A stretch of DNA of 57,190 bases from a virus. The notes beneath the pieces are model-generated. The model was not told the origin of the DNA, ran no database searches, and saw only the letters and a program-made list of their open reading frames with translations. Position numbers and translations under genes: made by a program. This document shows positions 11,503 through 57,190 of the stretch, piece by piece; position 1 is the stretch's first letter; every line of letters begins with the position of its first letter. The stretch is taken from the IMG/VR virus record IMGVR_UViG_3300033183_000017, positions 1 through 57,190 of that record. One strand, given 5' to 3'.

Positions 11503-12290
11503 AGCTCCTGTAAGTTTTCCATATCCTCTGGCATACGGTATTTAATATCATCAGACAAACTCAGGGCTAAAGCTTGTTTGCCTGTCCACAGTTCTATCTC
11601 TCTGCGGTATTCAATCGTCTTGCCTGTAGCGTCAGGGTCAAGAGCAATAACTGATCGGTTAAAGTCACCAATCCTAGCGAAGTGTTTATGATTCATGGTG
11701 GTACCAAGGATAGCCATGCATGTCACGTTGGATAACTCTTGGTGTGCAACGATAGCAGACACAACATCCTCAACAATCAGCATCACATCACCGTTACCTA
11801 TAGTGTAGTAGTCAGCAGCACCAGTGTAGCGGTACCACTTGGGATGTTTCTTTTTACCTACTGCTCTACCAATAGCATCAATCATGGAACCCTTCTTGTT
11901 GTAGATAGGGAAGACGACACGCTCTTGCTGTACATCGTAGTAGGTACCACCGACGATACCCCAACGGCGCATGAACCTGTTGTGCTTGGTGTGTTGTGGC
12001 GTAGGTATAACTAACTGGGCGGGTAGCTCCATAGTCTCTGCCTCTTTAGGTTTGTTGTCGTTAGCAGCAGGGCGCATATGTCTACGTATCTCAGCAGCAG
12101 TCATGTCTGTATCGAACATACCACCCACATCGCAGCCTAGCTTGTAACAGTTATATTTCAGTTGACCTAATTCGCAAGTAGCAGAGAAAGTATTTTTTCC
12201 CTTACAGAAGGGGCAGTCTCCACGGTATGGACCGTTAGCTGATACAGACTCAGCGTACTCTCTGTGTAGTTTCCAGTTACTCTTCTTCAT
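11490..12290 (-). CDS. DNA primase (zinc finger + TOPRIM)
   Basis: The N-terminal CPFCKG..C..LGC zinc-binding motif and the TOPRIM acidic motifs IVEDVVSA and ALDPDATG. Confidence 0.85.
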   Translation of the reverse strand: MKKSNWKLHREYAESVSANGPYRGDCPFCKGKNTFSATCELGQLKYNCYKLGCDVGGMFDTDMTAAEIRRHMRPAANDNKPKEAETMELPAQLVIPTPQHTKHNRFMRRWGIVGGTYYDVQQERVVFPIYNKKGSMIDAIGRAVGKKKHPKWYRYTGAADYYTIGNGDVMLIVEDVVSAIVAHQELSNVTCMAILGTTMNHKHFARIGDFNRSVIALDPDATGKTIEYRREIELWTGKQALALSLSDDIKYRMPEDMENLQELCGR

Positions 12291-13188
12291 CGTTTCCTCT
12301 CGCTGCTAGTGCTTTAGTTGCACCGCTTAATGTGTTGACCATGTAGGGTTTTACTGACTGGATGTTCTTGTGTCCTGTCACCTGCATGATGTTAGCTAAG
12401 TCAACGCCACCTTCCATCATCTCAGTCACAGCAGTACGGCGTAAGTCCATGGCTGTAAGTTCATGTGGTAGATTAGCTTCGTCTAGTACCTCGTTGATAA
12501 GAGGTGATATTTCCTGTTTGTCATAAGGTGTATACGCACCCGCGCGTGGTCTAACACGGGGTGCTACGTAGTCTTGAAAGCCAAAGTCTTCCTTCTGTTG
12601 ACGCAGCATCTTGCACAACCCCGAAGAGATCGGCAAATGTACTTCAGCGTTGCGCTTTGATTGAGTTAGATCAAGTTGGCAAACATCCAAATCCAACCTG
12701 TCCCACTTAAGTACACGCATATCACCGATGCGTTGCGCCCAGTCATATGCCATGTGTACAATCAATCCGATGCTGCGCCAACGGAAGTCACTGTAAGCAG
12801 TCTCAAGGAATGTCGTGACATGTTCACGTTCCCACACAGTACGGCGCGGTTGGGAGGTAACCGTTTGTACAAGTGCAACCGGGTTGTGAATCATCACGTC
12901 ATGGCGCATCGCGTTTTTCCATGCGGCTGACAGCACGGACTTGCGATAGTTGGCAGTGCGATTACCGATAGTAAGCCACTGCTCATACGCTTGCGTCAGG
13001 TGACGCACCTTGAGATTCTTACAGCGATAATCCCCTAAGTCTTTGCCCTCAACCTTAGTGTCGAGTACTTCGTTTAGGTGAGACTCGTAGTCTTTCTGGC
13101 TTTGTGCGCTTAGTCTACGATATGCGGGGGAAAGGAAATAAAACCCGACGATCTCCGAAAGTTTGGCATTGGCCTTGGGGATATTCAT
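12277..13188 (-). CDS. int: tyrosine recombinase/integrase
   Basis: Catalytic-domain pattern ..AQRIGDM.., ..MDLRRTAVTE.., ..VTGHKNIQSVKPY. Start ATG 13188 is preceded by AAGGAGA. The track ORF extends to 13248. Confidence 0.8.
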   Translation of the reverse strand: MNIPKANAKLSEIVGFYFLSPAYRRLSAQSQKDYESHLNEVLDTKVEGKDLGDYRCKNLKVRHLTQAYEQWLTIGNRTANYRKSVLSAAWKNAMRHDVMIHNPVALVQTVTSQPRRTVWEREHVTTFLETAYSDFRWRSIGLIVHMAYDWAQRIGDMRVLKWDRLDLDVCQLDLTQSKRNAEVHLPISSGLCKMLRQQKEDFGFQDYVAPRVRPRAGAYTPYDKQEISPLINEVLDEANLPHELTAMDLRRTAVTEMMEGGVDLANIMQVTGHKNIQSVKPYMVNTLSGATKALAARGNDEEE

Positions 13189-13189
13189 G

Positions 13190-13453
13190 TTACCACTGTC
13201 TCCTTGTTTTCCAGTAGGACCAACACATATTGCAGTGGTCCCTACCAAATATTAAATCTATAAGCCATACGATGTTAGGCTTACTCTTCCTCTTCCACTC
13301 CCAGTTTCTTGCTGAGAATGTCTGGTTTAGACTGCCGCCTAGAATCACGTTTGTCAAGACGCTTAGTGCTATCGCTACTCGTCTTAGGTAGTTTCCCAAT
13401 CCAGTGCGTAACATCATCATGTACATCATCTCTTTCTGGCATGTCGGTACCAC
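13190..13453 (-). CDS. small membrane protein (87 aa)
   Basis: Hydrophobic segment VAIALSVLTNVILGG and a C-terminal HCNMCWSYW. Track ORF with a GTG start. Confidence 0.5.
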   Translation of the reverse strand: MVPTCQKEMMYMMMLRTGLGNYLRRVAIALSVLTNVILGGSLNQTFSARNWEWKRKSKPNIVWLIDLIFGRDHCNMCWSYWKTRRQW

Positions 13454-13470
13454 AAGTATAAAGCTCCTAC

Positions 13471-13506
13471 AAAATAAACACCTGCCAAAGTAAGTGGCAG
13501 TAGGTG
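13471..13506 (-). terminator. rho-independent terminator candidate on the minus strand
   Basis: Stem CTGCCA/TGGCAG (13482..13487 with 13495..13500) has flanking CACC/GGTG. In minus sense it is followed by TTTATTTTG. Confidence 0.45.
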
Positions 13507-13508
13507 CT

Positions 13509-13631
13509 TTAGAACATCGGATACCATACTTCGCCTCTGTCTATTGCTTCCTTAACTGGGACAGCCTCACGCTCTAGTCGCTTGCCTGTCTCGTTGTCAC
13601 CCTTCCAGTATGCATCATCAGCACACTTCAT
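13509..13631 (-). CDS. possible mini-ORF (40 aa)
   Basis: Own translation MKCADDAYWKGDNETGKRLEREAVPVKEAIDRGEVWYPMF. It has no clear SD. Confidence 0.3.
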   Translation of the reverse strand: MKCADDAYWKGDNETGKRLEREAVPVKEAIDRGEVWYPMF

Positions 13632-13638
13632 TAACCAG

Positions 13639-14222: not shown

Positions 14223-14454
14223 CCTTTGCTACCACCCACAGGCGGCGTGTGTGTTGGTCGATCTTACGTGTTGTGATCTTAATGTTCATCTTCTTTGCGT
14301 AGTTGAAGAAGCTAGGCAGTGACTTGCGTGAGATAGCTACGCTGTCACCTACATTCATGCGGTTAAGTAGTTTGTCGTAACCCTTTGAAGGTGCGCCTAT
14401 TTTCTTACCTGCGTTTGAAGGTACTGGGATGTGTGATTCAATCATGTAAGCCAT
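14215..14454 (-). CDS. hypothetical protein (79 aa)
   Basis: Track ORF, overlap-coupled. Confidence 0.5.
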   Translation of the reverse strand: MAYMIESHIPVPSNAGKKIGAPSKGYDKLLNRMNVGDSVAISRKSLPSFFNYAKKMNIKITTRKIDQHTRRLWVVAKDE

Positions 14455-14762
14455 TATACTGTCTCCTCGTTTGATAGCTCAATTTTTACGTGATTACCGT
14501 GTGATGTTAGTGTTGCATTACCGTCTATGCATAGGCAGTAACCCTTAACAATTTCCTTTGTCAGTACGTGATAGCGTACGTAACGTTGACCTGTCACTGG
14601 GTGAGCTTTCATCTCACGTTTAAACTGAACTCCCCAGTCTTGTTCCAGATCGTTGATGCGGCGGGGTAGAGACATGATGTTGTACTCTACAATCGCTTCG
14701 CGGTTAGTGATGCTACCTGTTGTGTTCAGGTGCTTAAGGATAGTTTTAAGTTGTGGTTTCAT
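14454..14762 (-). CDS. winged-helix/HTH-like DNA-binding protein (putative regulator)
   Basis: LKHLNTTGSITNREAIVEYNIMSLPRRINDLE looks like an HTH. It is the first gene after an 80-nt gap that contains a promoter-like element. Confidence 0.45.
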   Translation of the reverse strand: MKPQLKTILKHLNTTGSITNREAIVEYNIMSLPRRINDLEQDWGVQFKREMKAHPVTGQRYVRYHVLTKEIVKGYCLCIDGNATLTSHGNHVKIELSNEETV

Positions 14763-14842: not shown

Positions 14843-15592
14843 TCAAGAAAGTGTTGCAGCTTCGCAACAGTTGAACTCATACACAGCACGGGCAAATCCA
14901 CGTGGCGTGGCTGAGCGAATGTCTTTGGTACGTTGTGACTTACCGCCTAGCTTTAGGTGTTGTGTGCTGTAGCCTGTGGGCTTGCACGTAGGTAGGCGGT
15001 GCGGCATACGGAAGTTGCCACCTGTCCAGAGGCATGTCTTTTTAGTGTATGCATCTTTAGGTGCGATGTAGTCAGGCCACCGTGGATGTTCTGCCTCTGC
15101 GTCAGGGATGTATTCGCCATACTCATATGGGTGGAACGTGTAGTTAGGCTTGCGCCACAGCGTGGATAGTCGGGACACTGGGTTCTCAATAAAGTATGGT
15201 ATCTCTAGTGCCTCGAACAGTGACGCACACCAACGTGCATGGTTGCTTGCTTTGATCTGAAACTCAGGGTCACGCTCTGCCTTACGCTTGAAGTGTGCAG
15301 CACCCGACACAGCTAGGTCTGTGCATACTGGAAATGCCATGCCGAATACCACGTTCTCATTCTTGAATGCTCTGCGTAGATGTTCGATGTTGTCGATGTC
15401 CCACAGGTCCATGTGTCTGTAGATTATGGAACCGCCACTCTCGTAGTGGTCTACATGAGAAGTGCCTTGTCCGTTTTGTCCTTTACCCTTGTGTTGTATG
15501 TCAAAGGCAAAGCTTTGATACCCTGCCTCTGCCCATGGCTTGAGTGCTTCGCCTGTGAAGTCATATAGTGATAGTACGATACCTTTAGTCAT
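14843..15592 (-). CDS. compact DNA (cytosine-5)-methyltransferase-like protein
   Basis: Order of motif-like segments: SLYDFTGE (I), FPVCTDLAVSG (IV, PC), FIENPVS (VI, ENV), SQRTKDIR / TPRGFARAV (VIII-X). At 249 aa there is little room for a target-recognition domain. Confidence 0.5.
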   Translation of the reverse strand: MTKGIVLSLYDFTGEALKPWAEAGYQSFAFDIQHKGKGQNGQGTSHVDHYESGGSIIYRHMDLWDIDNIEHLRRAFKNENVVFGMAFPVCTDLAVSGAAHFKRKAERDPEFQIKASNHARWCASLFEALEIPYFIENPVSRLSTLWRKPNYTFHPYEYGEYIPDAEAEHPRWPDYIAPKDAYTKKTCLWTGGNFRMPHRLPTCKPTGYSTQHLKLGGKSQRTKDIRSATPRGFARAVYEFNCCEAATLS

Positions 15593-17505: not shown

Positions 17506-17727
17506 TTAAACGTTTGACCAGCATTTACCGTGGAACTCGTTACTATCCACCCATCTATTAAACTCTTCCTGCGTCATTAGCTTTGACAATTCATCCTGTA
17601 ATGCGCCGTACATTCTACCCTCAAACTTAAAGCAGTGTTCACCTGATGCTAATTCCATCAGATAGTATGCCCGAATGAATGTTTTAATCAGCTTCACTCT
17701 TGTTTGCTCTTCCGTTTTCATTTTCAT
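17506..17727 (-). CDS. first gene of the leftward arm, hypothetical protein (71-73 aa)
   Basis: Track ORF. GAAAGGA lies upstream of ATGs at 17727 and 17721. Confidence 0.55.
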   Translation of the reverse strand: MKMKTEEQTRVKLIKTFIRAYYLMELASGEHCFKFEGRMYGALQDELSKLMTQEEFNRWVDSNEFHGKCWSNV

Positions 17728-18079
17728 ATCCTTTCAGATTGTCCATAAAGCGGGATAGTCTGAACGTATCCCACCAAAAGAAAATCTGTTGTCCGTGTTT
17801 TGCACTTTCGCTTGCGCTAAGTCTCATTTGCCACACGCCACCCTTTCAGCCATGGACGCCCATTGTGAGACTGCATGTATATCATGCCACGTCACGCCGT
17901 TTGCCGCCTATCGGTGCAAGGTAGTCGCAACCACCAAGGGAATGTTTTTGAATATTGTCGGTGCCACCATTCCGTAGAACCACCAAGGGGCCGAGGCCAA
18001 TTTCAAATAACGTGGGCGTTTTTTAAGTCGGTGTCCGATCCGCGTCCGATGCTTTGTTTTGTTTTCCTTTCGTGTTTTC

Positions 18080-18180
18080 GTTTTTGTTGAATTATTGATC
18101 GCAAATTAAAAAACGATTGTAAATAACTTTTTTCAACTATTTTATAAGTTATTGATTTTAAACGATTCTTTTTTTAAAAG
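18080..18180. other. AT-rich block with short direct repeats (candidate DNA-unwinding element)
   Basis: TTATTGAT occurs at 18092 and 18149, and AACGATT at 18112 and 18161. Runs of A/T are visibly richer than any flanking sequence. Confidence 0.4.
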
Positions 18181-18246
18181 TTCCTGTTTTGTTCTGCTTG
18201 TTCCTGATTCGTCGCTGATTCGTTTACGTTTTGTTCCCCATACTTG

Positions 18247-18400
18247 ACGCGGGGTGTGCGTAGGCGCGTTACGCGTGTGTGTGTGCGTACGCCTACGCGC
18301 AGCCGAGTGCGCCCGCGTCCGGGCGTGTGTGCGCATGTGCGCGGGTACGCGCGTGTGTGTGTGCGCCTGCGTGTATGCGCGCGAGGGTGTTCGCGTTATG
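18247..18400. repeat. GC-rich alternating purine/pyrimidine low-complexity tract, (GT)n/(GC)n-like
   Basis: Text such as CGCGTGTGTGTGTGCGTACGCCTACGCGC...GCGTGTGTGCGCATGTGCGCGGGTACGCGCGTGTGTGTGTGCGCC. Inverted repeat 18258..18266 / 18290..18298 has a (GT)5 loop. Confidence 0.85.
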
Positions 18401-18789
18401 TTCGCGCATGAGAACAAATGGTGAACAAATAGGGGGATTTTCGGGTACTGTTTTTTCATGGGGTGACATACCCGAAAAAGTGTTTGCGCACTGTGGACCC
18501 CCTTACAGACGCTCTCTGACGTTTTCACGTTTTGTTCCGCTACTTGTTCTTGCTTTGTTCCCCGACTCGAAAGCGTTACAACATTTTGACGGGGTGGCCT
18601 TTTTGGTAACGCTTTATGGGGGTGTGGTATTTGTGCATCACTCTTGCAAAAAGGACACACTGTTGCAAAATTACCACATTTCCCGGCCTTTTTTACGCTA
18701 GATTGACGCCATATCAGTAGGTAAACGCAATAAAAACAACAACTTAGCAGGTAAAACCCTCTGAAAAATACTAAAATGCCTTGCTTTGA

Positions 18790-18823
18790 GGGGGGCGGGC
18801 GAGGGCCACGCGGGGGTATGGGG
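18790..18823 (+). other. G-quadruplex-type motif
   Basis: GGGGGGCGGGCGAGGGCCACGCGGGGGTATGGGG has five G-runs of 3 or more with short spacers. Confidence 0.5.
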
Positions 18824-18950
18824 TTACGTGTATATGTACAAACACACAGAAGTGATTTTTAGAAGCGCAACCTATAGGTGTGTTGTATACAAAGTGGTGC
18901 AAATAGGCCACACTCTAGAGAAAAAACACAGAGTTATACGGAATAGGGGA

Positions 18951-18978
18951 TTGACTAGGGGTGTTTTGTGAATATAAC
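18951..18978 (+). promoter_or_regulatory. main rightward sigma70-like promoter TTGACT-N16-TATAAC
   Basis: TTGACT is at 18951..18956 and TATAAC at 18973..18978. It shares the extended context GTGAATA(C/T)AACT with the promoter at 34144. Confidence 0.55.
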
Positions 18979-18996
18979 TGCGGAGCAGGAGCAGCA

Positions 18997-19146
18997 CTGT
19001 TACACTCTAGTGTTACTACTCTTATAAAAGTATAACATATTAGAAAGTTAGACTTAGGATAGAGTTAAGACTTGTAAGTGTTACAGTGTTGCTGTATACT
19101 CTCAGGCAAGTAACACGAATAATAGTAACAAATAAAAGTGTTACAC
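18997..19146. repeat. cluster of (G)TGTTAC / GTAACA(C) motifs in the leader of the rightward arm
   Basis: Direct copies occur at 18998, 19010, 19078 and 19138. Inverted copies occur at 19110..19116 and 19125..19130. Confidence 0.8.
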
Positions 19147-19148
19147 TA

Positions 19149-19228
19149 CTGTACGTGACATATTTTGCGTGTGTCTCTTCCTCATGTCTCCCCTTCCGCA
19201 TGTAACTTGTGTCACGTACAGCCTTTTT
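19149..19228 (+). promoter_or_regulatory. attenuator-like element: perfect 12-bp inverted repeat followed by a T-run
   Basis: CTGTACGTGACA (19149..19160) pairs with TGTCACGTACAG (19210..19221), then CCTTTTT (19222..19228). It ends 14 nt before the GTG start at 19242. Confidence 0.4.
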
Positions 19229-19241
19229 GAGAGTTGTAACC

Positions 19242-19910
19242 GTGAAGCTGCCTTTCTTTAACCGTGAACGCTACGTTGTACTTAGTGCATACACCCCTGT
19301 GGAGTACTTAGTGGACCATGCGCCAGTGTGTTTAAGCTCTAAAGCTATACCAGAGTTTAACCGTACAGGTAAATACGACAGAAGTTTCAAGACATGTCAC
19401 GGATATATCGCATCTCTTAAACGTTCAGCTACTATCTTAGCTCCGTGTGACTTTGAAGTGACTGCTACTAGCGAATACTTTGAGTATCGTTGGCCTGAGC
19501 AGCACCATATGTCTGTACAAGAGCATAAAGACCCGCAATACCAGAGCCATACTGTACATGTTACGCAGTTAGGGCTACCCTTTGCTCTAAGATGCAACAA
19601 GAAAGACGTTAACTTTGTAGAGAGTAGGCACGTTCTTAACGATACGCACATGATTGTACCTTCCGGGGTAGCACCTTTTCCGTATGGCGTTAAGTACAAC
19701 CCGTTTAACTACATACCTAAAGCAGATGTGTCCTACACTGTGCCATTCAGGAAGCCTATCGTAGCGTTATACCCACTGTCTGACCTACCATTCCACGTTG
19801 AGTGTCACTTCGATCCAGATAAGTACCATCAGTATAGGGAATCTTGTACTAACCAGTCTAAGTTTAAGGGTTACTCCTACGCTCTAAGCAAAACAAAAGG
19901 TTTAGACTAG
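19242..19910 (+). CDS. paralog 1 of an unassigned three-member family
   Basis: The alignment with the paralog N-termini begins at GTG 19242 (VKLPFFNRERYVVLSAYT, compared with MKLKIPYLKRERYIVLKVYT). The open frame extends to 19209. Confidence 0.7.
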   Translation: MKLPFFNRERYVVLSAYTPVEYLVDHAPVCLSSKAIPEFNRTGKYDRSFKTCHGYIASLKRSATILAPCDFEVTATSEYFEYRWPEQHHMSVQEHKDPQYQSHTVHVTQLGLPFALRCNKKDVNFVESRHVLNDTHMIVPSGVAPFPYGVKYNPFNYIPKADVSYTVPFRKPIVALYPLSDLPFHVECHFDPDKYHQYRESCTNQSKFKGYSYALSKTKGLD

Positions 19911-19911
19911 G

Positions 19912-20583
19912 ATGAAACTCAAGATACCGTACCTAAAACGAGAACGCTACATAGTCCTCAAGGTATATACGTCTTTGCACTACCTAGCAGAGAAAGCACC
20001 TATAGTTGTATCTAAGAAAGCTGTACCTGCGTTCCCTGATATAGGGCCACGACAGTCAGGATTCCAAACGTGCTACGGATTTGTGGGGTCACTCAAAAGA
20101 TCGGCTACTATATTCTCGCCTTGTGACTTTCACATGACGTGTGACGGAGAGGATTACGTTTATACGTGGCCTCCTCAGATGGACTTTCACGTAATAAACC
20201 ATAATGATCAGCAGTGGTCACCCCGGGATATGTTTGTATCTAAGCTACGCATACCTTTTGCAGTAGAGTGTAACAAACCAGAGACACACTTTGTCATGGG
20301 TAGTCATATTCTGAATGACACAGAGATGCACATACCCACAGGCGTAATCACATTCGATCACATGGCTGATTGTAATATCTTTAACTATATCCCAAAGAAA
20401 CCACTAGAATACTTTGTACCCTTCAAGAAACCTCTAGCCCAGTTATATCCTCTATCAGACCTACCTCTTCATGTTGAATGTGAGTTCAACCTAGAAAAGT
20501 TTGAATCTTTGCGGAGACTTGGTGAAAGCAACTGCGCATTTAGAAACTCACACCTGAAGTTGATGAATACGAAAAAACTATAA
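19912..20583 (+). CDS. paralog 2 of the same family
   Basis: Shares FxTCxG...SLKRSATI, ILNDT.M..P.GV, NxFNYIPK, YPLSDLPxHVEC with paralog 1. Confidence 0.75.
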   Translation: MKLKIPYLKRERYIVLKVYTSLHYLAEKAPIVVSKKAVPAFPDIGPRQSGFQTCYGFVGSLKRSATIFSPCDFHMTCDGEDYVYTWPPQMDFHVINHNDQQWSPRDMFVSKLRIPFAVECNKPETHFVMGSHILNDTEMHIPTGVITFDHMADCNIFNYIPKKPLEYFVPFKKPLAQLYPLSDLPLHVECEFNLEKFESLRRLGESNCAFRNSHLKLMNTKKL

Positions 20584-20591
20584 AACAAAAC

Positions 20592-20619
20592 TTGACAATG
20601 CGAAACAAGCGAATACAAC
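20592..20619 (+). promoter_or_regulatory. sigma70-like promoter TTGACA-N16-TACAAC inside the paralog array
   Basis: TTGACAAT-N11-GAATACAACTATA here is nearly identical in layout to 34144..34176. Confidence 0.5.
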
Positions 20620-20879
20620 TATATGCATCTGATAACGTTATAGAAGAGTTCTACGATGCAATCGCAGCTAATGATAGTCGTAAGCTCCGAAGAATACACA
20701 TACCTAAGTCTGATGTTTTCTACGTTAGGGCTGCGATAGAAGCGGATACTGGTGTAAGGTACACTCTTGACCATGTAGAACGCGCGATGTATCTTGAAGG
20801 GCATCTGAAACGCACAGAAGTGCTAGACCCTGATAGAGAGCGTGAATATGAAATTGAAGGTACCGTTTCTAAACTTTAA
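20592..20879 (+). CDS. possible 95-aa ORF between paralogs 2 and 3 (doubtful)
   Basis: Track ORF with a TTG start. Its first 28 nt are the promoter-like element and no SD is seen. Confidence 0.3.
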   Translation: MTMRNKRIQLYASDNVIEEFYDAIAANDSRKLRRIHIPKSDVFYVRAAIEADTGVRYTLDHVERAMYLEGHLKRTEVLDPDREREYEIEGTVSKL

Positions 20880-21546
20880 GAACTATGTGGTGCTAAAGTG
20901 CTACACAGACAACGGGATGTTACACTCAGCGTTTCCTGTCACACTATCGGCAAGACAGAGTGTTATAAAGACAGACCCTGCTAGACCCTACGGTTTTAGA
21001 ACTTGTACAGGTCGCACAGCAACACTTAAGCGATCAGCTACTATACCCATGTGGGTAACTTACGATGTAGATGTCAGAGATGGTGATGCTTATGTGTTCA
21101 AAGCTGACGAACACCCAGACCTTTGTAAGTTAGATTGGGTACTAAACGGCGATGCCTACATGGGTTCCGATAAGCTAGATCACATGTTGATCATGAAGCT
21201 AGACTCACCGTGGTGGTTTGAAGAAGAAACAGGTGTAGACTTTCTGTATGCACCAAACATACACAATACGACTAGGTGGCATTCACCGTCAGGAATACTA
21301 AACTTTAAGTATCAACACGCAGTTAATCTGTTTAACTACATTCATGTAGCCAGTAATCACCAGTACAGAGTTATAGCAGGTACACCTGCAGTATCGTACT
21401 ACCCGCTGACAGACAAGAAACTGTATGTAGAATCTATCTACGATGTGGACAAAGTTAAGTACTTGAAAGACAAATGTACTACACGCCCTTTTTGGGGTAG
21501 TCACGCAGACAGAGTAAAACAAGCTATATGTAGTCATGCTAAGTAG
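20848..21546 (+). CDS. paralog 3 (more divergent) of the same family
   Basis: MKLKVPFLNFKNYVVLKCYT, FRTCTG..ATLKRSATI, NLFNYIH, YPLTDKKLYVES. ATG 20848 was chosen by alignment with paralog 2. Confidence 0.7.
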   Translation: MKLKVPFLNFKNYVVLKCYTDNGMLHSAFPVTLSARQSVIKTDPARPYGFRTCTGRTATLKRSATIPMWVTYDVDVRDGDAYVFKADEHPDLCKLDWVLNGDAYMGSDKLDHMLIMKLDSPWWFEEETGVDFLYAPNIHNTTRWHSPSGILNFKYQHAVNLFNYIHVASNHQYRVIAGTPAVSYYPLTDKKLYVESIYDVDKVKYLKDKCTTRPFWGSHADRVKQAICSHAK

Positions 21547-25845: not shown

Positions 25846-26019
25846 ATGCTTAATTTAATCAAACGCGCATTTAAGGCTATCGAAGTAGCGCAACAAAAAC
25901 GAGCAGACTATAAACTACTGCAAATGCTAAATGATCGTGAACTACGTGATCTAGGTATTGGTCGCTCACAAATAAGAGAGATTATATATGGCGAGGAATC
26001 TAACAGAGAAGCAAGTTAA
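25846..26019 (+). CDS. DUF1127-type small protein (57 aa)
   Basis: Own translation MLNLIKRAFKAIEVAQQKRADYKLLQMLNDRELRDLGIGRSQIREIIYGEESNREAS. A strong SD AAGGAGG lies 5 nt upstream. L..L.DRELRDLGI.R..I is the DUF1127 signature as I recall it. Confidence 0.65.
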   Translation: MLNLIKRAFKAIEVAQQKRADYKLLQMLNDRELRDLGIGRSQIREIIYGEESNREAS

Positions 26020-39308: not shown

Positions 39309-40259
39309 ATGGCTCTACAAAACTCAGGTCAAATTTCTTTAAACGACATACACGTAGAAGCAGGTGGGTCTAGTGGCTCTGCAGTTTCTATTAACGACAG
39401 TGATGTTCGTGGGTTGATCGACAAAGGGTCTGCCGCACAGATGTCTTTCAGCGAATGGTACGGCGCACAGGCCGAGGTTGTTCTAAGCTCTGCAGGTACT
39501 ATCAACGGATATGGTAACCGTAAACAAATCACAGTATCTAGCTTTATCTCTTCTGGTGAGACATTACGCATCCCATCTAATATGTATGTGTGGTCTGATT
39601 CTACAGGTACACCTGCACTAACGGTAAACATTCCCTGTACTATTATCAACGAAGGTCGTATTATTGGTAAAGGCGGTAACGGAGGTAACAGCTACGGTTC
39701 TGGTGCAGGTGGTGGTATTGGCCTACGTATCACATCTAGTGGCGTAACTATTATCAACGAATCAGGTGGTTACATCGCTGGCGGCGGTGGAGGTGGCGGT
39801 GGAGGCCGTTACAACACAAACATCGCAGGTGGTGGCGGTGGCGCAGGTGGCGGCAACGGAGGCTACGGCGCATTCCCTTACACTTATAACATTACCTCTG
39901 GCGGTTCTGGTGGTGCTATCAACGGTACTTCTACAGGTTCAAACTCTGGTGCAGGTGCTGGCGGTGGAGGCGGCGGCGGTGGTTCTGCAGGTGGCGGCGG
40001 TGGCCGTATCCTACCGGGCGTTGGTAAAGCAGGTAACTGTGGTGGAACTAACTGCGGTGGTATCGGCGGCAGTGGCGGTAACGTAGGTGGTAACCACCGT
40101 ACAGGTCAACAAGGCGGTTCTGCTGCTGCAGGTGGCGGCGGTTGGGGAGCGCGAGGCGGTACTGGTGGTACAGGCGGTTATGGTAACGGCGGTGCTGCAA
40201 TCAGTAAAACAACTAGTTATAGCTTAACAAATAACGGTACAATATACGGGTCTACATAA
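39309..40259 (+). CDS. glycine-rich protein, paralog A (putative fibre-associated adhesin)
   Basis: 316 aa. The N-terminal ~115 aa and several Gly-rich blocks are shared with 45958..46950. Confidence 0.7.
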   Translation: MALQNSGQISLNDIHVEAGGSSGSAVSINDSDVRGLIDKGSAAQMSFSEWYGAQAEVVLSSAGTINGYGNRKQITVSSFISSGETLRIPSNMYVWSDSTGTPALTVNIPCTIINEGRIIGKGGNGGNSYGSGAGGGIGLRITSSGVTIINESGGYIAGGGGGGGGGRYNTNIAGGGGGAGGGNGGYGAFPYTYNITSGGSGGAINGTSTGSNSGAGAGGGGGGGGSAGGGGGRILPGVGKAGNCGGTNCGGIGGSGGNVGGNHRTGQQGGSAAAGGGGWGARGGTGGTGGYGNGGAAISKTTSYSLTNNGTIYGST

Positions 40260-45958: not shown

Positions 45959-46950
45959 TGGCCCTACAGAACTCAGGTAAGATCACTTTAAAGGACATCC
46001 AAGGAGAGTTTGGCGGTACTGCCCCTCACTCTCTTAAGGAGTACTACGATGCTGCTAGTGGTGTACCTGCTAGTGGTACTATTAGTATTAAAGACTTTTA
46101 CGGAGTACAAGATACCACTGTTCTTACATCAGCAGCCTTGGTTAACGGTAAATCTAACCGTAAGCAAATTACTGCTTCTAGCTTTATTAGCGCGGGTGAA
46201 ATTCTTGAGATACCTGCTAACTTCTACGTCTGGTCTGATAGCACTTCAACAGCAGCCCTAACAGTAGACATACCTTGTACAATCCTTAACAAGGGCTTTA
46301 TTATTGGCAAGGGCGGTGCGGGTGCAGTTATCAGTGTATCCACCGCAGGTGGCGGTGGCCCTGCTATTAACGTTACGTCTACAGGAGTTACAATTACAAA
46401 CGAGTCAGGCGCTTACATCGCGGGTGGCGGTGGCGGCGGTGGCGCAGGTAACTGGCAAGGCGGCGGCGGTAACGAGTACGGTACAGGCAACCGTGCAGGT
46501 GGCGGCGGTGGTGCAGGAGGTGGTGCGGGCGGCACTGGCTCTTTCCCTAACTTTAACGACACTAGGGCGGGCGGCTCTGGTGGCGCTCTTGGAGCAGCAG
46601 GATCAGCAGGTCAGTCTGGTGGCGCTGGCGGTGGTGCTGGCGGCGGCGGTGGAGGCGGCGGTGGCGCAGGTGGGGGCGGTGGTCGCATCCTTCCCGGTAC
46701 TGGCGGTGCGGGTGGCTCTGGCACCAACGCAGGTGGTGTAGGTGGCGCTGCAGGTAACGTAGGTGGTAATCACAATTCTGGTAACGAGTGGTCATCTGCT
46801 GCAGGTGGCGGCGGTGGTTGGGGCGCACGTGGTGGCTCTGGCGGTAGTATTATTAGTGGTAGCTACGGTTCTTACGGTTCTGGTGGTGCTGCAATAACAG
46901 GAACATCTCGTACGCTTACTAACAACGGAACCATATACGGTACTACATAA
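45958..46950 (+). CDS. glycine-rich protein, paralog B (putative fibre-associated adhesin)
   Basis: 330 aa, a paralog of 39309..40259 (MALQNSG.I.L.DI, NRKQIT.SSFIS.GE.L.IP.N.YVWSDST, GGGGRILPG, GGGWGARGG, LTNNGTIYG). Confidence 0.7.
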   Translation: MALQNSGKITLKDIQGEFGGTAPHSLKEYYDAASGVPASGTISIKDFYGVQDTTVLTSAALVNGKSNRKQITASSFISAGEILEIPANFYVWSDSTSTAALTVDIPCTILNKGFIIGKGGAGAVISVSTAGGGGPAINVTSTGVTITNESGAYIAGGGGGGGAGNWQGGGGNEYGTGNRAGGGGGAGGGAGGTGSFPNFNDTRAGGSGGALGAAGSAGQSGGAGGGAGGGGGGGGGAGGGGGRILPGTGGAGGSGTNAGGVGGAAGNVGGNHNSGNEWSSAAGGGGGWGARGGSGGSIISGSYGSYGSGGAAITGTSRTLTNNGTIYGTT

Positions 46951-56973: not shown

Positions 56974-57190
56974 TCTTTACTTTCCTTAGATATTCTAGCG
57001 CCATGCTGACGCCTATTAGAGTATCCCCTAGCATTCCTATGCCTCTGTTACAAGGGTCACATATGTGGCCTCTGTATTCGCCTGTTTCGTGGTCGTGATC
57101 TAGCACTAGCTTACCCATACGTGTATCTTCTGCAGCTACCCCACAACACTCGCAATTACCATGAGCTTTATGTCCATGCTCTTTTTGTAA
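56960..57190 (-). CDS. Endonuclease VII-type nuclease, 3' part (57050..57190 duplicates 1..141)
   Basis: The same reading frame continues ..CDPCNRGIGMLGDTLIGVSMALEYLRKVKSEKD to a TGA stop at 56960..56962. It overlaps the GTG start of the next gene. Confidence 0.75.
   Translation of the reverse strand, partial: LQKEHGHKAHGNCECCGVAAEDTRMGKLVLDHDHETGEYRGHICDPCNRGIGMLGDTLIGVSMALEYLRKVKSEKD
57050..57190. repeat. Terminal direct repeat copy 2 (identical to 1..141)
   Basis: Same comparison as copy 1. Confidence 0.95.

Follow-up and report, generated by a model that had tools for sequence, protein, structure and literature searches.

The 57,190-nt viral genome analysed here (IMG/VR record IMGVR_UViG_3300033183_000017, positions 1 to 57,190, referred to throughout as the window) carries between its two divergent gene arms a central non-coding control region (17728..19241) of an HMO-2011-type podophage, which is conserved in the group and modular in its construction. 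Close to its right end lies a structured RNA (19105-19236, plus strand) that is conserved, supported by covariation and previously undescribed. We regard it as fairly probable that the region as a whole combines an origin module, tandem promoters and a terminated leader or small RNA that heads the rightward arm. A conserved non-coding control region is hereby defined for an abundant marine phage group, with coordinates for its candidate promoters, operators and origin, and a covariation-supported RNA is added that has 83 distinct metagenomic and isolate copies and no Rfam family.

The closest isolate to the window phage is Roseobacter phage CRP-207, an HMO-2011-type podophage, and the affiliation suggested in a first-pass annotation of the letters alone is thereby borne out. 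The HMO-2011 type is one of the dominant groups of marine viruses (PMC9038755), and the hosts of the cultured relatives are Rhodobacteraceae. The genome of CRP-207 has been published at the protein level only (PMC9038755), and the control region goes unmentioned in those published descriptions of HMO-2011-type phages that were consulted, which stop at protein-coding modules (PMC9038755 among them).

Extent and conservation of the control region

The region extends from the leftward arm (ATG at 17727, minus strand) to the rightward arm, whose first gene starts at a GTG (19242) that is in frame with the open reading frame (ORF) 19209..19910 and fits the N-termini of its paralogs. With at least 1481 nt it is the largest gap between plausible genes, the next largest having been ranked by crude gene chaining. 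The first-pass annotation had called these roughly 1.5 kb without genes exceptional, and so they are: in addition to being the largest gap, the region holds the genome extremes of low GC and of purine/pyrimidine alternation as well as the only G-quadruplex (G4) motif. The hairpins, repeats, AT block, iterons, tract, G4 motif and ORFs listed in that annotation were all found where it had placed them.

In CRP-207 the same 1.48 kb stretch between the divergent arms is unannotated, the record having been opened at gp01. The equivalent gap is likewise unannotated in all seven CRP genomes compared (CRP-207, CRP-2, CRP-603, CRP-9, CRP-13, CRP-1 and CRP-345), and in HMO-2011 its annotation consists of two overlapping small ORFs only. 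Across these eight cultured relatives the gap measures 0.9-1.5 kb, and the DNA upstream of a gp76-like gene (20601-20879 in the window) is unannotated or dubiously annotated over 0.9-1.3 kb. The gp76-like protein, which has no Pfam, PHROG or PDB sequence match, opens the rightward arm in each of the eight, and its relatives are encoded by at least 577 viral contigs.

An exact 21-mer, TATAACTGCGGAGCAGGAGCA (18973), is present in 92 IMG/VR contigs. As these 92 related loci were picked via the 21-mer, conservation near it is partly given by construction; its extent over 640 nt is not. By blastn against these loci, DNA similarity at the gap is limited to 18600-19240, 18115-18224, 17798-17860 and the gp76-like gene, with a peak of conservation at 18600-19240 (20-75 of the 92 loci). 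The protein-coding DNA at 19250-20550 has zero matches in the related loci, and the right-hand 640 nt or so of the region are therefore better conserved than the genes that adjoin them. The conserved protein-coding genes that the first-pass annotation had named as an outcome speaking against its proposal were found at this position in none of the relatives, where it is the DNA that is conserved.

Hidden coding potential was rejected on the pattern of substitution. That the region conceals small protein-coding genes is scarcely credible: ORFs of 30-172 aa do occur on both strands and the HMO-2011 record annotates its two overlapping ORFs in the equivalent region, but column entropy over 18610-19235 lacks a 3-nt periodicity (permutation p 0.44-0.78, with phase means of 0.92/0.43/0.25 in the gp76-like gene as coding control), indels are of arbitrary length, no PHROG or Pfam match was obtained, and the seven CRP genomes have no annotation there. 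The two ORFs 18142..18660 (minus strand) and 18279..18701 (plus strand) are present in the window, and the DNA of relatives matches them through low-complexity GC/GT sequence only; neither has a PHROG match. Both are spurious and derived from the GC/GT tract, as the first-pass annotation had supposed.

The structured RNA and the rightward promoters

The RNA, recognised by covariation and folding, is about 125 nt long and follows the promoter P2. It is made up of two hairpins and a tail. Hairpin A (19110..19144, plus strand) has a 7-bp stem, GUAACAC/GUGUUAC, all seven pairs of which show compensatory changes, and an A-rich loop of 21-22 nt (22 nt and 59% A). Hairpin B (19149..19221, plus strand) has a long interrupted stem (11+1+3+4 bp) with its loop at 19174-19196 in the window, and directly after it comes a terminator-like U-rich tail, CCUUUUUG (19222..19229, plus strand).

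With 22 diverse copies, RNAalifold yielded 26 pairs, 13 of which are compensatory, and 97.7% of cells were paired as against 88.5% in column shuffles (a value reached by 0 of 500) and 14-58% in slid-partner controls. On 83 distinct copies, compensatory changes were found at 25 of the 26 pairs and 94.9% of cells were paired compared with 82.0% after shuffling (0/500), figures that come from an alignment (A4) fitted to the covariance model, which inflates pair counts and favours structure. A raw alignment of 73 sequences (A1), many rows of which are truncated, gave no RNAalifold consensus. Stem sequence shifts freely while the pairing is kept, for example GUUCAUAC/GUAUGAAC in the related locus L073, and the window copy reaches -39.6 kcal/mol as the two-hairpin RNA (z = -4.76). 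In hairpins A and B, G-U or U-G combinations number 173 and A-C or C-A combinations 38; because G-U pairs outnumber A-C, the structure is attributed to plus-strand RNA rather than to duplex DNA or the opposite strand. Taken together, the alignments show a plus-strand RNA fold to be maintained by selection. The first-pass annotation had envisaged a structured non-coding RNA locus to be sought by covariation and comparison with Rfam; such a locus is strongly supported at 19105-19236, in what that annotation had called a repeat-laden leader, whereas conservation is lacking for the hairpins at 18438-18615 to which it had drawn attention.

A covariance model built from the 22-copy alignment finds one copy in the window and complete copies in all long-leader variants, as well as in 57 of 80 loci fetched independently via the gp76 protein. 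Without exception the copies share the strand of the genes, and in most of them about 25-35 nt separate the end of the RNA from the gp76-like gene. CRP-603 and CRP-2 give weak model matches (E 0.01-0.03) at the syntenic spot, where by inspection the architecture is the same and the stem sequences are other ones. Comparison with Rfam 15 returned no match to the RNA, only matches at chance level.

Across the family the loop of hairpin B has a median length of 28 nt and a median pyrimidine content of 85%. Of the 83 copies, 81 contain CUCC in this loop, 60 CCUCC, 24 CCUCCUCC and 2 the exact CCUCCUCCC. Behind the stem, 77 of 80 distinct copies have a run of 3-6 T, and the first 10 nt hold a median of five T. 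Judged by these counts, the conservation of the loop exceeds the needs of a terminator. A pyrimidine-rich loop of the CCUCC type is a hallmark of anti-Shine-Dalgarno small RNAs. Pairing between the CUCC loop and the 5' end of the P1 transcript (GGAGCAGGAG) was considered and rejected, as the 5' repeat becomes GUAGCA, GUAGUA or GUAGAA and the loop does not change to match.

Two tandem promoters precede the RNA on the plus strand. P1 (18951..18978) reads TTGACT-16 nt-TATAAC with GGGG before it, and a promoter of this type is found in all relatives, HMO-2011 included (TTGACA-17-TATAAT). Its initial transcribed region bears a tandem purine-rich (NAG)n repeat, GGAGCAGGAGCAG (18982..18994, plus strand), which appears across clades as two copies of GTAGCA, two of GTAGAA, two to four of GTAGTA, or (GA)n, N alone varying. 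P2 (19072..19100) reads TTGTAA-17 nt-TATACT. Among 77 distinct copies of P2, the -35 hexamer is TTGACA in 52 and the spacing is 17 nt in 61, and the -10 hexamer is TATACT in 44, TACACT in 12 and TAAACT in 8. The proposal that the region is a promoter hub is thus supported, through the conservation of both elements, for two rightward sigma70-type promoters.

The interval between P1 and P2 (18995..19094, no strand assigned) contains about six AGT-N3-4-ACT inverted repeats, some of which overlap the -35 element and spacer of P2. Their core is clade-specific (GTTACAC, TTAAAC, TAATAC) and alters in all copies together. A conserved RNA fold for this interval was rejected, as RNAalifold found next to no consensus structure when given 27 short and 18 long forms, though the single window sequence does fold well. 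Because no common fold is found, the repeats are read as operator DNA, and they are probably operators for a phage DNA-binding protein. In the early arm, a winged helix-turn-helix (winged-HTH) protein is encoded at 14454-14762 (minus strand; PF14090, E 1.5e-10), and from its domain it is a candidate regulator of these operator-like repeats.

From this arrangement we infer that the right module of the region (18606-19241) controls the rightward lysis-terminase-structural arm. Further promoters lie within that arm, with strong ones at 20592, 34144 and 47086. The first of these, a P3-like element (TTGACA-16-TACAAC, 20592-20621, plus strand), overlaps the ATG (20601) of the gp76-like gene. The sequence cTTGACAATG at the start of this gene is conserved across the group; CRP-9 and CRP-13 have the element upstream of the ATG instead. 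A promoter type TTGACA-16/17-TA(T/C)AAC recurs in the genome at 6116 (minus strand), 20592, 34144 and 41924, the first three, with a spacing of 16 nt, being in intergenic spots.

Possible action of the RNA and competing explanations

In the reading that we favour, host sigma70 RNA polymerase would start at the two tandem strong promoters P1 and P2. The transcript from P2 would begin a few nucleotides before hairpin A and fold at once into hairpins A and B, after which hairpin B and the U tail would stop a fraction of the polymerases and release a transcript whose length would be about 125 nt when started at P2 and about 245 nt when started at P1, with read-through or the downstream promoter P3 serving the following genes. 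The weakest step is the last, in which the pyrimidine-rich, anti-Shine-Dalgarno-like loop would pair with GGAG-type ribosome-binding sites or bind an RNA-binding protein. The relation of the RNA to the gene behind it differs among clades. The CRP-207 clade has the promoter-like TTGACA-16-TACAAC within about 15 nt of the RNA, overlapping the gp76 start codon, and in sequence the RNA of this clade has the look of a gene complete in itself, set between P2 and P3. In other clades a gp76-like gene with a AAGGTAGGA ribosome-binding site directly follows the RNA, which would therefore also be a 5' leader there.

Several observations weigh against this reading or restrict it. In the window and in the contig L004 the RNA is followed by a pair of inserted paralogs that have no promoter to themselves, which speaks against complete termination; termination would therefore be partial only. 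A scan for consensus terminators found nothing, the loop of hairpin B is very long, and the U-run is only 3-6 nt and begins 2-3 nt after the stem. In pairing with ribosome-binding regions of the phage itself, the CUCC loop does not surpass shuffled loops, and the early and late arms showed no clear difference in Shine-Dalgarno use. By the covariance model the RNA is absent from CRP-1, CRP-345, CRP-9, CRP-13 and HMO-2011, all of which retain P1, the G-block described below and palindrome-rich leaders; since it is missing from five cultured relatives, the RNA is clade-specific and not essential to the group. The model-fitted alignment noted above belongs here too. No sigma70-like leftward promoter was found on the minus strand of 17600-19300, though the leftward arm starts at 17727, so that a leftward promoter, one of the two divergent promoters mentioned in the first-pass annotation, is not supported. 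As regards the origin, no initiator was recognised, and the cumulative GC skew, which that annotation had proposed to examine for a switch point, does have its minimum at about 13-18 kb, but the switch is confounded by the change in gene orientation.

The two inserted genes belong to a set of three paralogs of about 225 aa each (19242-19910, 19912-20583 and 20842-21546). The first two make up an insertion, placed behind the RNA element and ahead of the gp76-like gene, that is common to contig L004/L103 and absent from most relatives. Two of the three match phrog_7084, a family without assigned function; 19242-19910 has no PHROG match and was grouped through its N-terminal similarity.

A late switch of the lambda type is a minor possibility. 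P1 and P2 would then be constitutive, hairpin B with its U tail would take the part of the terminator tR', the short RNA would arise as a by-product comparable to lambda 6S RNA, and a phage protein acting at the NAG repeats or the AGT-N-ACT sites would render polymerase resistant to the terminator so that the late arm is read. The rightward arm, about 38 kb of co-oriented sequence from the GTG at 19242, has small genes without assigned function and then the small terminase, large terminase, portal and structural genes; TerS, TerL and portal were found in the window itself, and an endolysin or lysozyme is annotated in this arm of relatives. Behind the element come lysis genes, the small and the large terminase, the portal and then the structural genes, an order that fits a lambda late operon, and a strong promoter followed by a hairpin and U-rich tail stands ahead of the first gene, immediately upstream of the late genes as in Q cassettes. 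A direct repeat also marks the initial transcribed region, and the binding element of Q21 is likewise made of two directly repeated subsites (10.1101/651190). However, no Q gene lies upstream of the promoter, where non-coding DNA and the divergent arm are found, and no Q family was detected in Pfam scans of about 30 window ORFs (about 50 if scans with PHROGs are counted in, a part of all ORFs). No -10-like sigma-dependent pause element was recognised, there being no TAnnnT-like hexamer in the (NAG)n initial transcribed region of the window; the internal strong promoters at 20592, 34144 and 47086 mean that read-through is not obligatory, and a strictly conserved pyrimidine-rich loop is needless for a terminator.

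The likeness to the lambda PR'-6S-tR' leader (10.1101/651190) nevertheless includes a host-type promoter, a short structured transcript, and a hairpin with a U tail before a lysis-terminase-head-tail operon. The arrangement described here differs in having two tandem promoters, a large pyrimidine-rich loop that is conserved in sequence and extra promoters in the late arm, with no Q gene or homolog among the ORFs scanned and no recognisable sigma-dependent pause element. By analogy, it would work most like the lambda PR'-6S-tR' leader, yet it falls outside the Q cassettes.

More specific, and rather doubtful, is the idea that roseophages carry a viral counterpart of the CcsR/CcaF1 system, in which a promoter-proximal small RNA would act together with a phage DUF1127 RNA-binding protein and the CUCC loop would serve as an anti-Shine-Dalgarno decoy or repressor. 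In the CcsR/cuckoo RNAs there are two hairpins, each with a CCUCCUCCC loop, and a genetic link joins these RNAs to CcaF1, a DUF1127 protein (PMC8034643); cuckoo small RNAs (Rfam ar14-type) occur in Rhodobacteraceae and Rhizobiales and can be derived from a 5'-UTR or a 3'-UTR (PMC8034643). The window encodes a small DUF1127 protein of the CcaF1 family (57 aa; 25846..26019, plus strand; PF06568, E 3.2e-7, 30.4 bits with the curated cutoff at 23.3); its gene lies in the rightward arm, as does the RNA, and shortly before that of the small terminase. Among cultured phages DUF1127 is limited to seven roseophages, and a DUF1127 ORF is present in 25 of the 27 RNA-positive contigs with enough downstream DNA, 2.2-6.9 kb downstream and not adjacent. 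The two systems thus share a CCUCC-type anti-Shine-Dalgarno-like sequence exposed in a hairpin loop, Rhodobacteraceae hosts and a DUF1127 gene, here in the same arm. In the phage, by contrast, only one loop of the two is pyrimidine-rich (that of hairpin A being A-rich), it has about 28 nt where the CcsR/cuckoo RNAs have a short CCUCCUCCC loop, and the DUF1127 gene is kilobases (2-7 kb) away and also occurs in relatives without the RNA (CRP-1, CRP-345 and CRP-13). No ar14/CcsR-type Rfam match was obtained at E up to 10 in window 18960-19260 or in L040 5400-5760. Membership in the CcsR/cuckoo family was rejected on account of the single pyrimidine-rich loop, the rarity of the exact motif (2/83), the lack of an Rfam match, the distant DUF1127 gene and its RNA-negative carriers. 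A full-text literature search yielded no paper connecting DUF1127 with phage-encoded RNAs.

If the counterpart were real, the RNA and DUF1127 might redirect, in the course of an infection, host or phage translation or the turnover of RNA that depends on RNase E. The pair offers a testable handle on late-gene timing in a phage without its own RNA polymerase and possibly bears on interference with host translation in Rhodobacteraceae, and cultured systems exist, e.g. CRP-207 on strain FZCC0040.

We judge it improbable that the element is a cis-acting processive antitermination RNA like put of phage HK022, the hairpins of which would bind polymerase so that terminators along the arm are read through. 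Two covariation-supported hairpins do stand a few nucleotides after the P2 start at the head of an arm of about 38 kb, much as two adjacent stem-loops stand just downstream of a phage promoter in HK022, and no protein antiterminator was found among the scanned ORFs; put RNA acts alone in HK022 (PMC9378689). Unlike put, the element is followed by a U-rich tail, which resembles a stop signal and not an anti-stop; position and two-hairpin architecture fit the put type. Internal promoters exist as well, and the element is missing from sister phages with the same arm architecture.

Conserved blocks, the origin-like module and other genome features

Between the left part of the region and P1 lie two conserved blocks. 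The first (18628..18670, no strand assigned) consists of TATTTGTGCATC and two copies of TTGCAAAA and is present in HMO-2011 itself. At the position equivalent to about 18600-18660, the relatives L019, L044, L084, L004, CRP-1 and CRP-2 have two perfect TTTGTGATCACAAA palindromes flanking a conserved TTGTGCATC block; the window has lost both palindromes. The second is a G-run block (18790..18860, plus strand) with the core GCGAGGGCCAC, the palindrome TACGTGTATATGTAC (18825-18839), ACACACAGAAGTG and then a T-run. Within it, 18790-18823 is the sole (G3+N1-7)x4 G4 motif of the whole genome on either strand. The G-block is conserved in CRP-207, CRP-2, CRP-603, CRP-1, CRP-345, HMO-2011 and many contigs, and the core GCGAGGGCCAC, the palindrome in the form TACGTrTATATGTAC and ACACAGAAGTG are recognisable even in HMO-2011, CRP-1 and CRP-345. 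In L045 (IMGVR_UViG_3300025138_000366) the G-runs at the equivalent of 18790-18823 are replaced by C-runs with the orientation of the core GCGAGGGCCAC kept; the G4 potential may switch strand, or it may be that only G:C tracts matter.

These blocks bear on a further, quite improbable alternative, according to which the inverted repeats act as DNA (cruciforms or sites for dimeric proteins) or the region is a packaging site with the genome ends, there being no functional RNA. Neither the conserved G-block nor the palindrome has a role assigned to it, relatives contain perfect palindromes such as TGTGATCACA, and the contig ends of the 92 related, independent assemblies (loci L003-L094) pile up within 0-700 nt upstream of the 21-mer at P1, in the G-rich block or beside it, with very few downstream. 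The G-U excess reported above is, however, expected for plus-strand RNA and not for duplex DNA, and stems vary in sequence with their pairing kept. The contig ends, moreover, are scattered, and some contig starts are poly-G runs typical of sequencing artefacts, which fits assembly failure at G-rich or hypervariable DNA; the region is a hot spot of assembly breaks. Fixed genome termini, considered from the contig ends, are not supported for the same reasons.

To the left lies the origin-like module, and by its composition and repeats we give 18041-18600 about an even chance of being a replication origin. An AT-rich block (18041..18180, no strand assigned; GC 0.257 in a composition scan of the genome) is a candidate DNA-unwinding element, and the lowest-GC 156-nt window of the genome starts at 18081. 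Next to it is a first set of iterons on the plus strand (18181..18244), with TTGTTC at 18189, 18198 and 18231 and TGATTCG at 18205 and 18216, the latter two 11 nt apart and each containing GATTC. About 20 loci retain the core of the AT block and first iterons (18115-18224), with identities of 75-87%, and the motifs recur in CRP-207, L019, L044 and L084, relatives having direct and inverted sets. There follows a Z-DNA-prone GC/GT tract of alternating purines and pyrimidines (18245..18400, 156 nt, no strand assigned, GC 0.69), the alternation of which, 0.806, is the maximum of the genome (mean 0.528, sd 0.052). A similar tract exists in CRP-207, L051 and CRP-1; in L019, L044 and L084 its place is taken by a short (TA)n. 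The second iteron set (18412..18428, minus strand) comprises two inverted TTGTTC 11 nt apart, and the third, a diverged duplicate of the first, has TTGTTC at 18532, 18544 and 18555. Eight copies of TTGTTC thus fall within 18189-18560 (372 nt) compared with 44 in the other 56.8 kb or so on both strands, a local enrichment of about 27-fold; they are ordered as three direct, two inverted and three direct around the GC/GT tract, at spacings of 9-12 nt.

An AT-rich element adjoining clustered, helically phased direct repeats is what characterises iteron-type origins, and the first-pass suggestion of an origin is plausible in that the AT minimum adjoins conserved phased iterons; that replication begins here is still something we infer. 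The TTGTTC/TGATTCG iterons beside the most easily melted DNA of the genome would be bound by some initiator, for which small early proteins without a type, DUF7178 and the winged-HTH protein are candidates. The module adjoins the strong rightward promoters at the junction of the divergent arms, and the Z-DNA-prone tract lies upstream of these promoters; given a leftward promoter on its left, divergent transcription would gather negative supercoils there. As in the iteron-plus-AT-rich origins of lambda (ori) and iteron plasmids, the AT extreme of the genome adjoins short repeats about one helical turn apart, but here two kinds of repeat are present, no longer than 6-7 bp and oriented both ways, and the module lies outside any gene, with no recognised initiator and with a long Z-DNA-prone tract between the repeat sets. 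GANTC is scarce genome-wide (123 sites as against 181 +/- 13 expected), and the phage encodes a methyltransferase (14843-15592); despite this scarcity, three GATTC cluster at the iterons (18164-18221), two of them within TGATTCG, and CRP-207 has five TGATTCG.

The remaining features of the region are less conserved. The spacer 18438..18615 (no strand assigned), in which the third iteron set lies, is specific to the window, with 10-bp perfect stems at 18438-18478 and 18570-18615 and no homolog in the related loci by blastn. The poorly conserved leader of the leftward replication arm (17728-18040) contains a hairpin with a 6-bp stem, GGGATA/TATCCC (17752..17772, minus strand, read directly), 25 nt upstream of the first leftward gene, and two exact copies of AACCACCAAGGG 49 nt apart (17929 and 17978; 17929..17989, plus strand) that occur in the window only. 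The hairpin at 17752, the AACCACCAAGGG pair and the hairpins at 18438-18615 have a blastn counterpart in none of the related loci compared; they are real, and their significance is unsupported. A conserved non-coding patch, TTTGCCACACGCCACCCTTTCAGCCATGG (17798..17860, no strand assigned), is shared by about 12 related loci at 84-97% identity and has no role assigned.

The leftward arm (minus strand, up to 17727) encodes a ribonucleotide reductase, a Cas4-like exonuclease, a DNA polymerase and a DnaB-like helicase, as well as a thymidylate synthase, a primase, a tyrosine integrase (12277-13248) and the methyltransferase already mentioned. No tRNA or tmRNA was found. Close to the integrase, a 196-nt stretch (13443-13638) lacks ORFs of at least 40 aa on the gene strand, and as a candidate for the phage attachment site (attP) it may be more natural than the control region; the relative CRP-3 has been reported to integrate into a tRNA-Met gene (PMC6918029). 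Searches for attP and prophage junctions were uninformative rather than negative: the exact 21-mer had 0 matches in 185,579 genomes, gp76 relatives among metagenome-assembled genomes were on contigs resembling phage genomes only, and the control region contains no tRNA T-arm-like motif.

The ends of the window overlap exactly over 141 nt (1-141 being identical to 57050-57190), which gives a circular assembly of about 57.05 kb. Such an overlap is as expected of a circular contig from an assembler with k = 141 and provides no evidence for a terminal repeat. In the rightward arm, glycine-rich GGN-repeat stretches at 39660-40180 and 46420-46870 share 128-nt segments that are 70% identical; they sit at the 3' ends of two genes, and the 3' ends of these genes are also alike.

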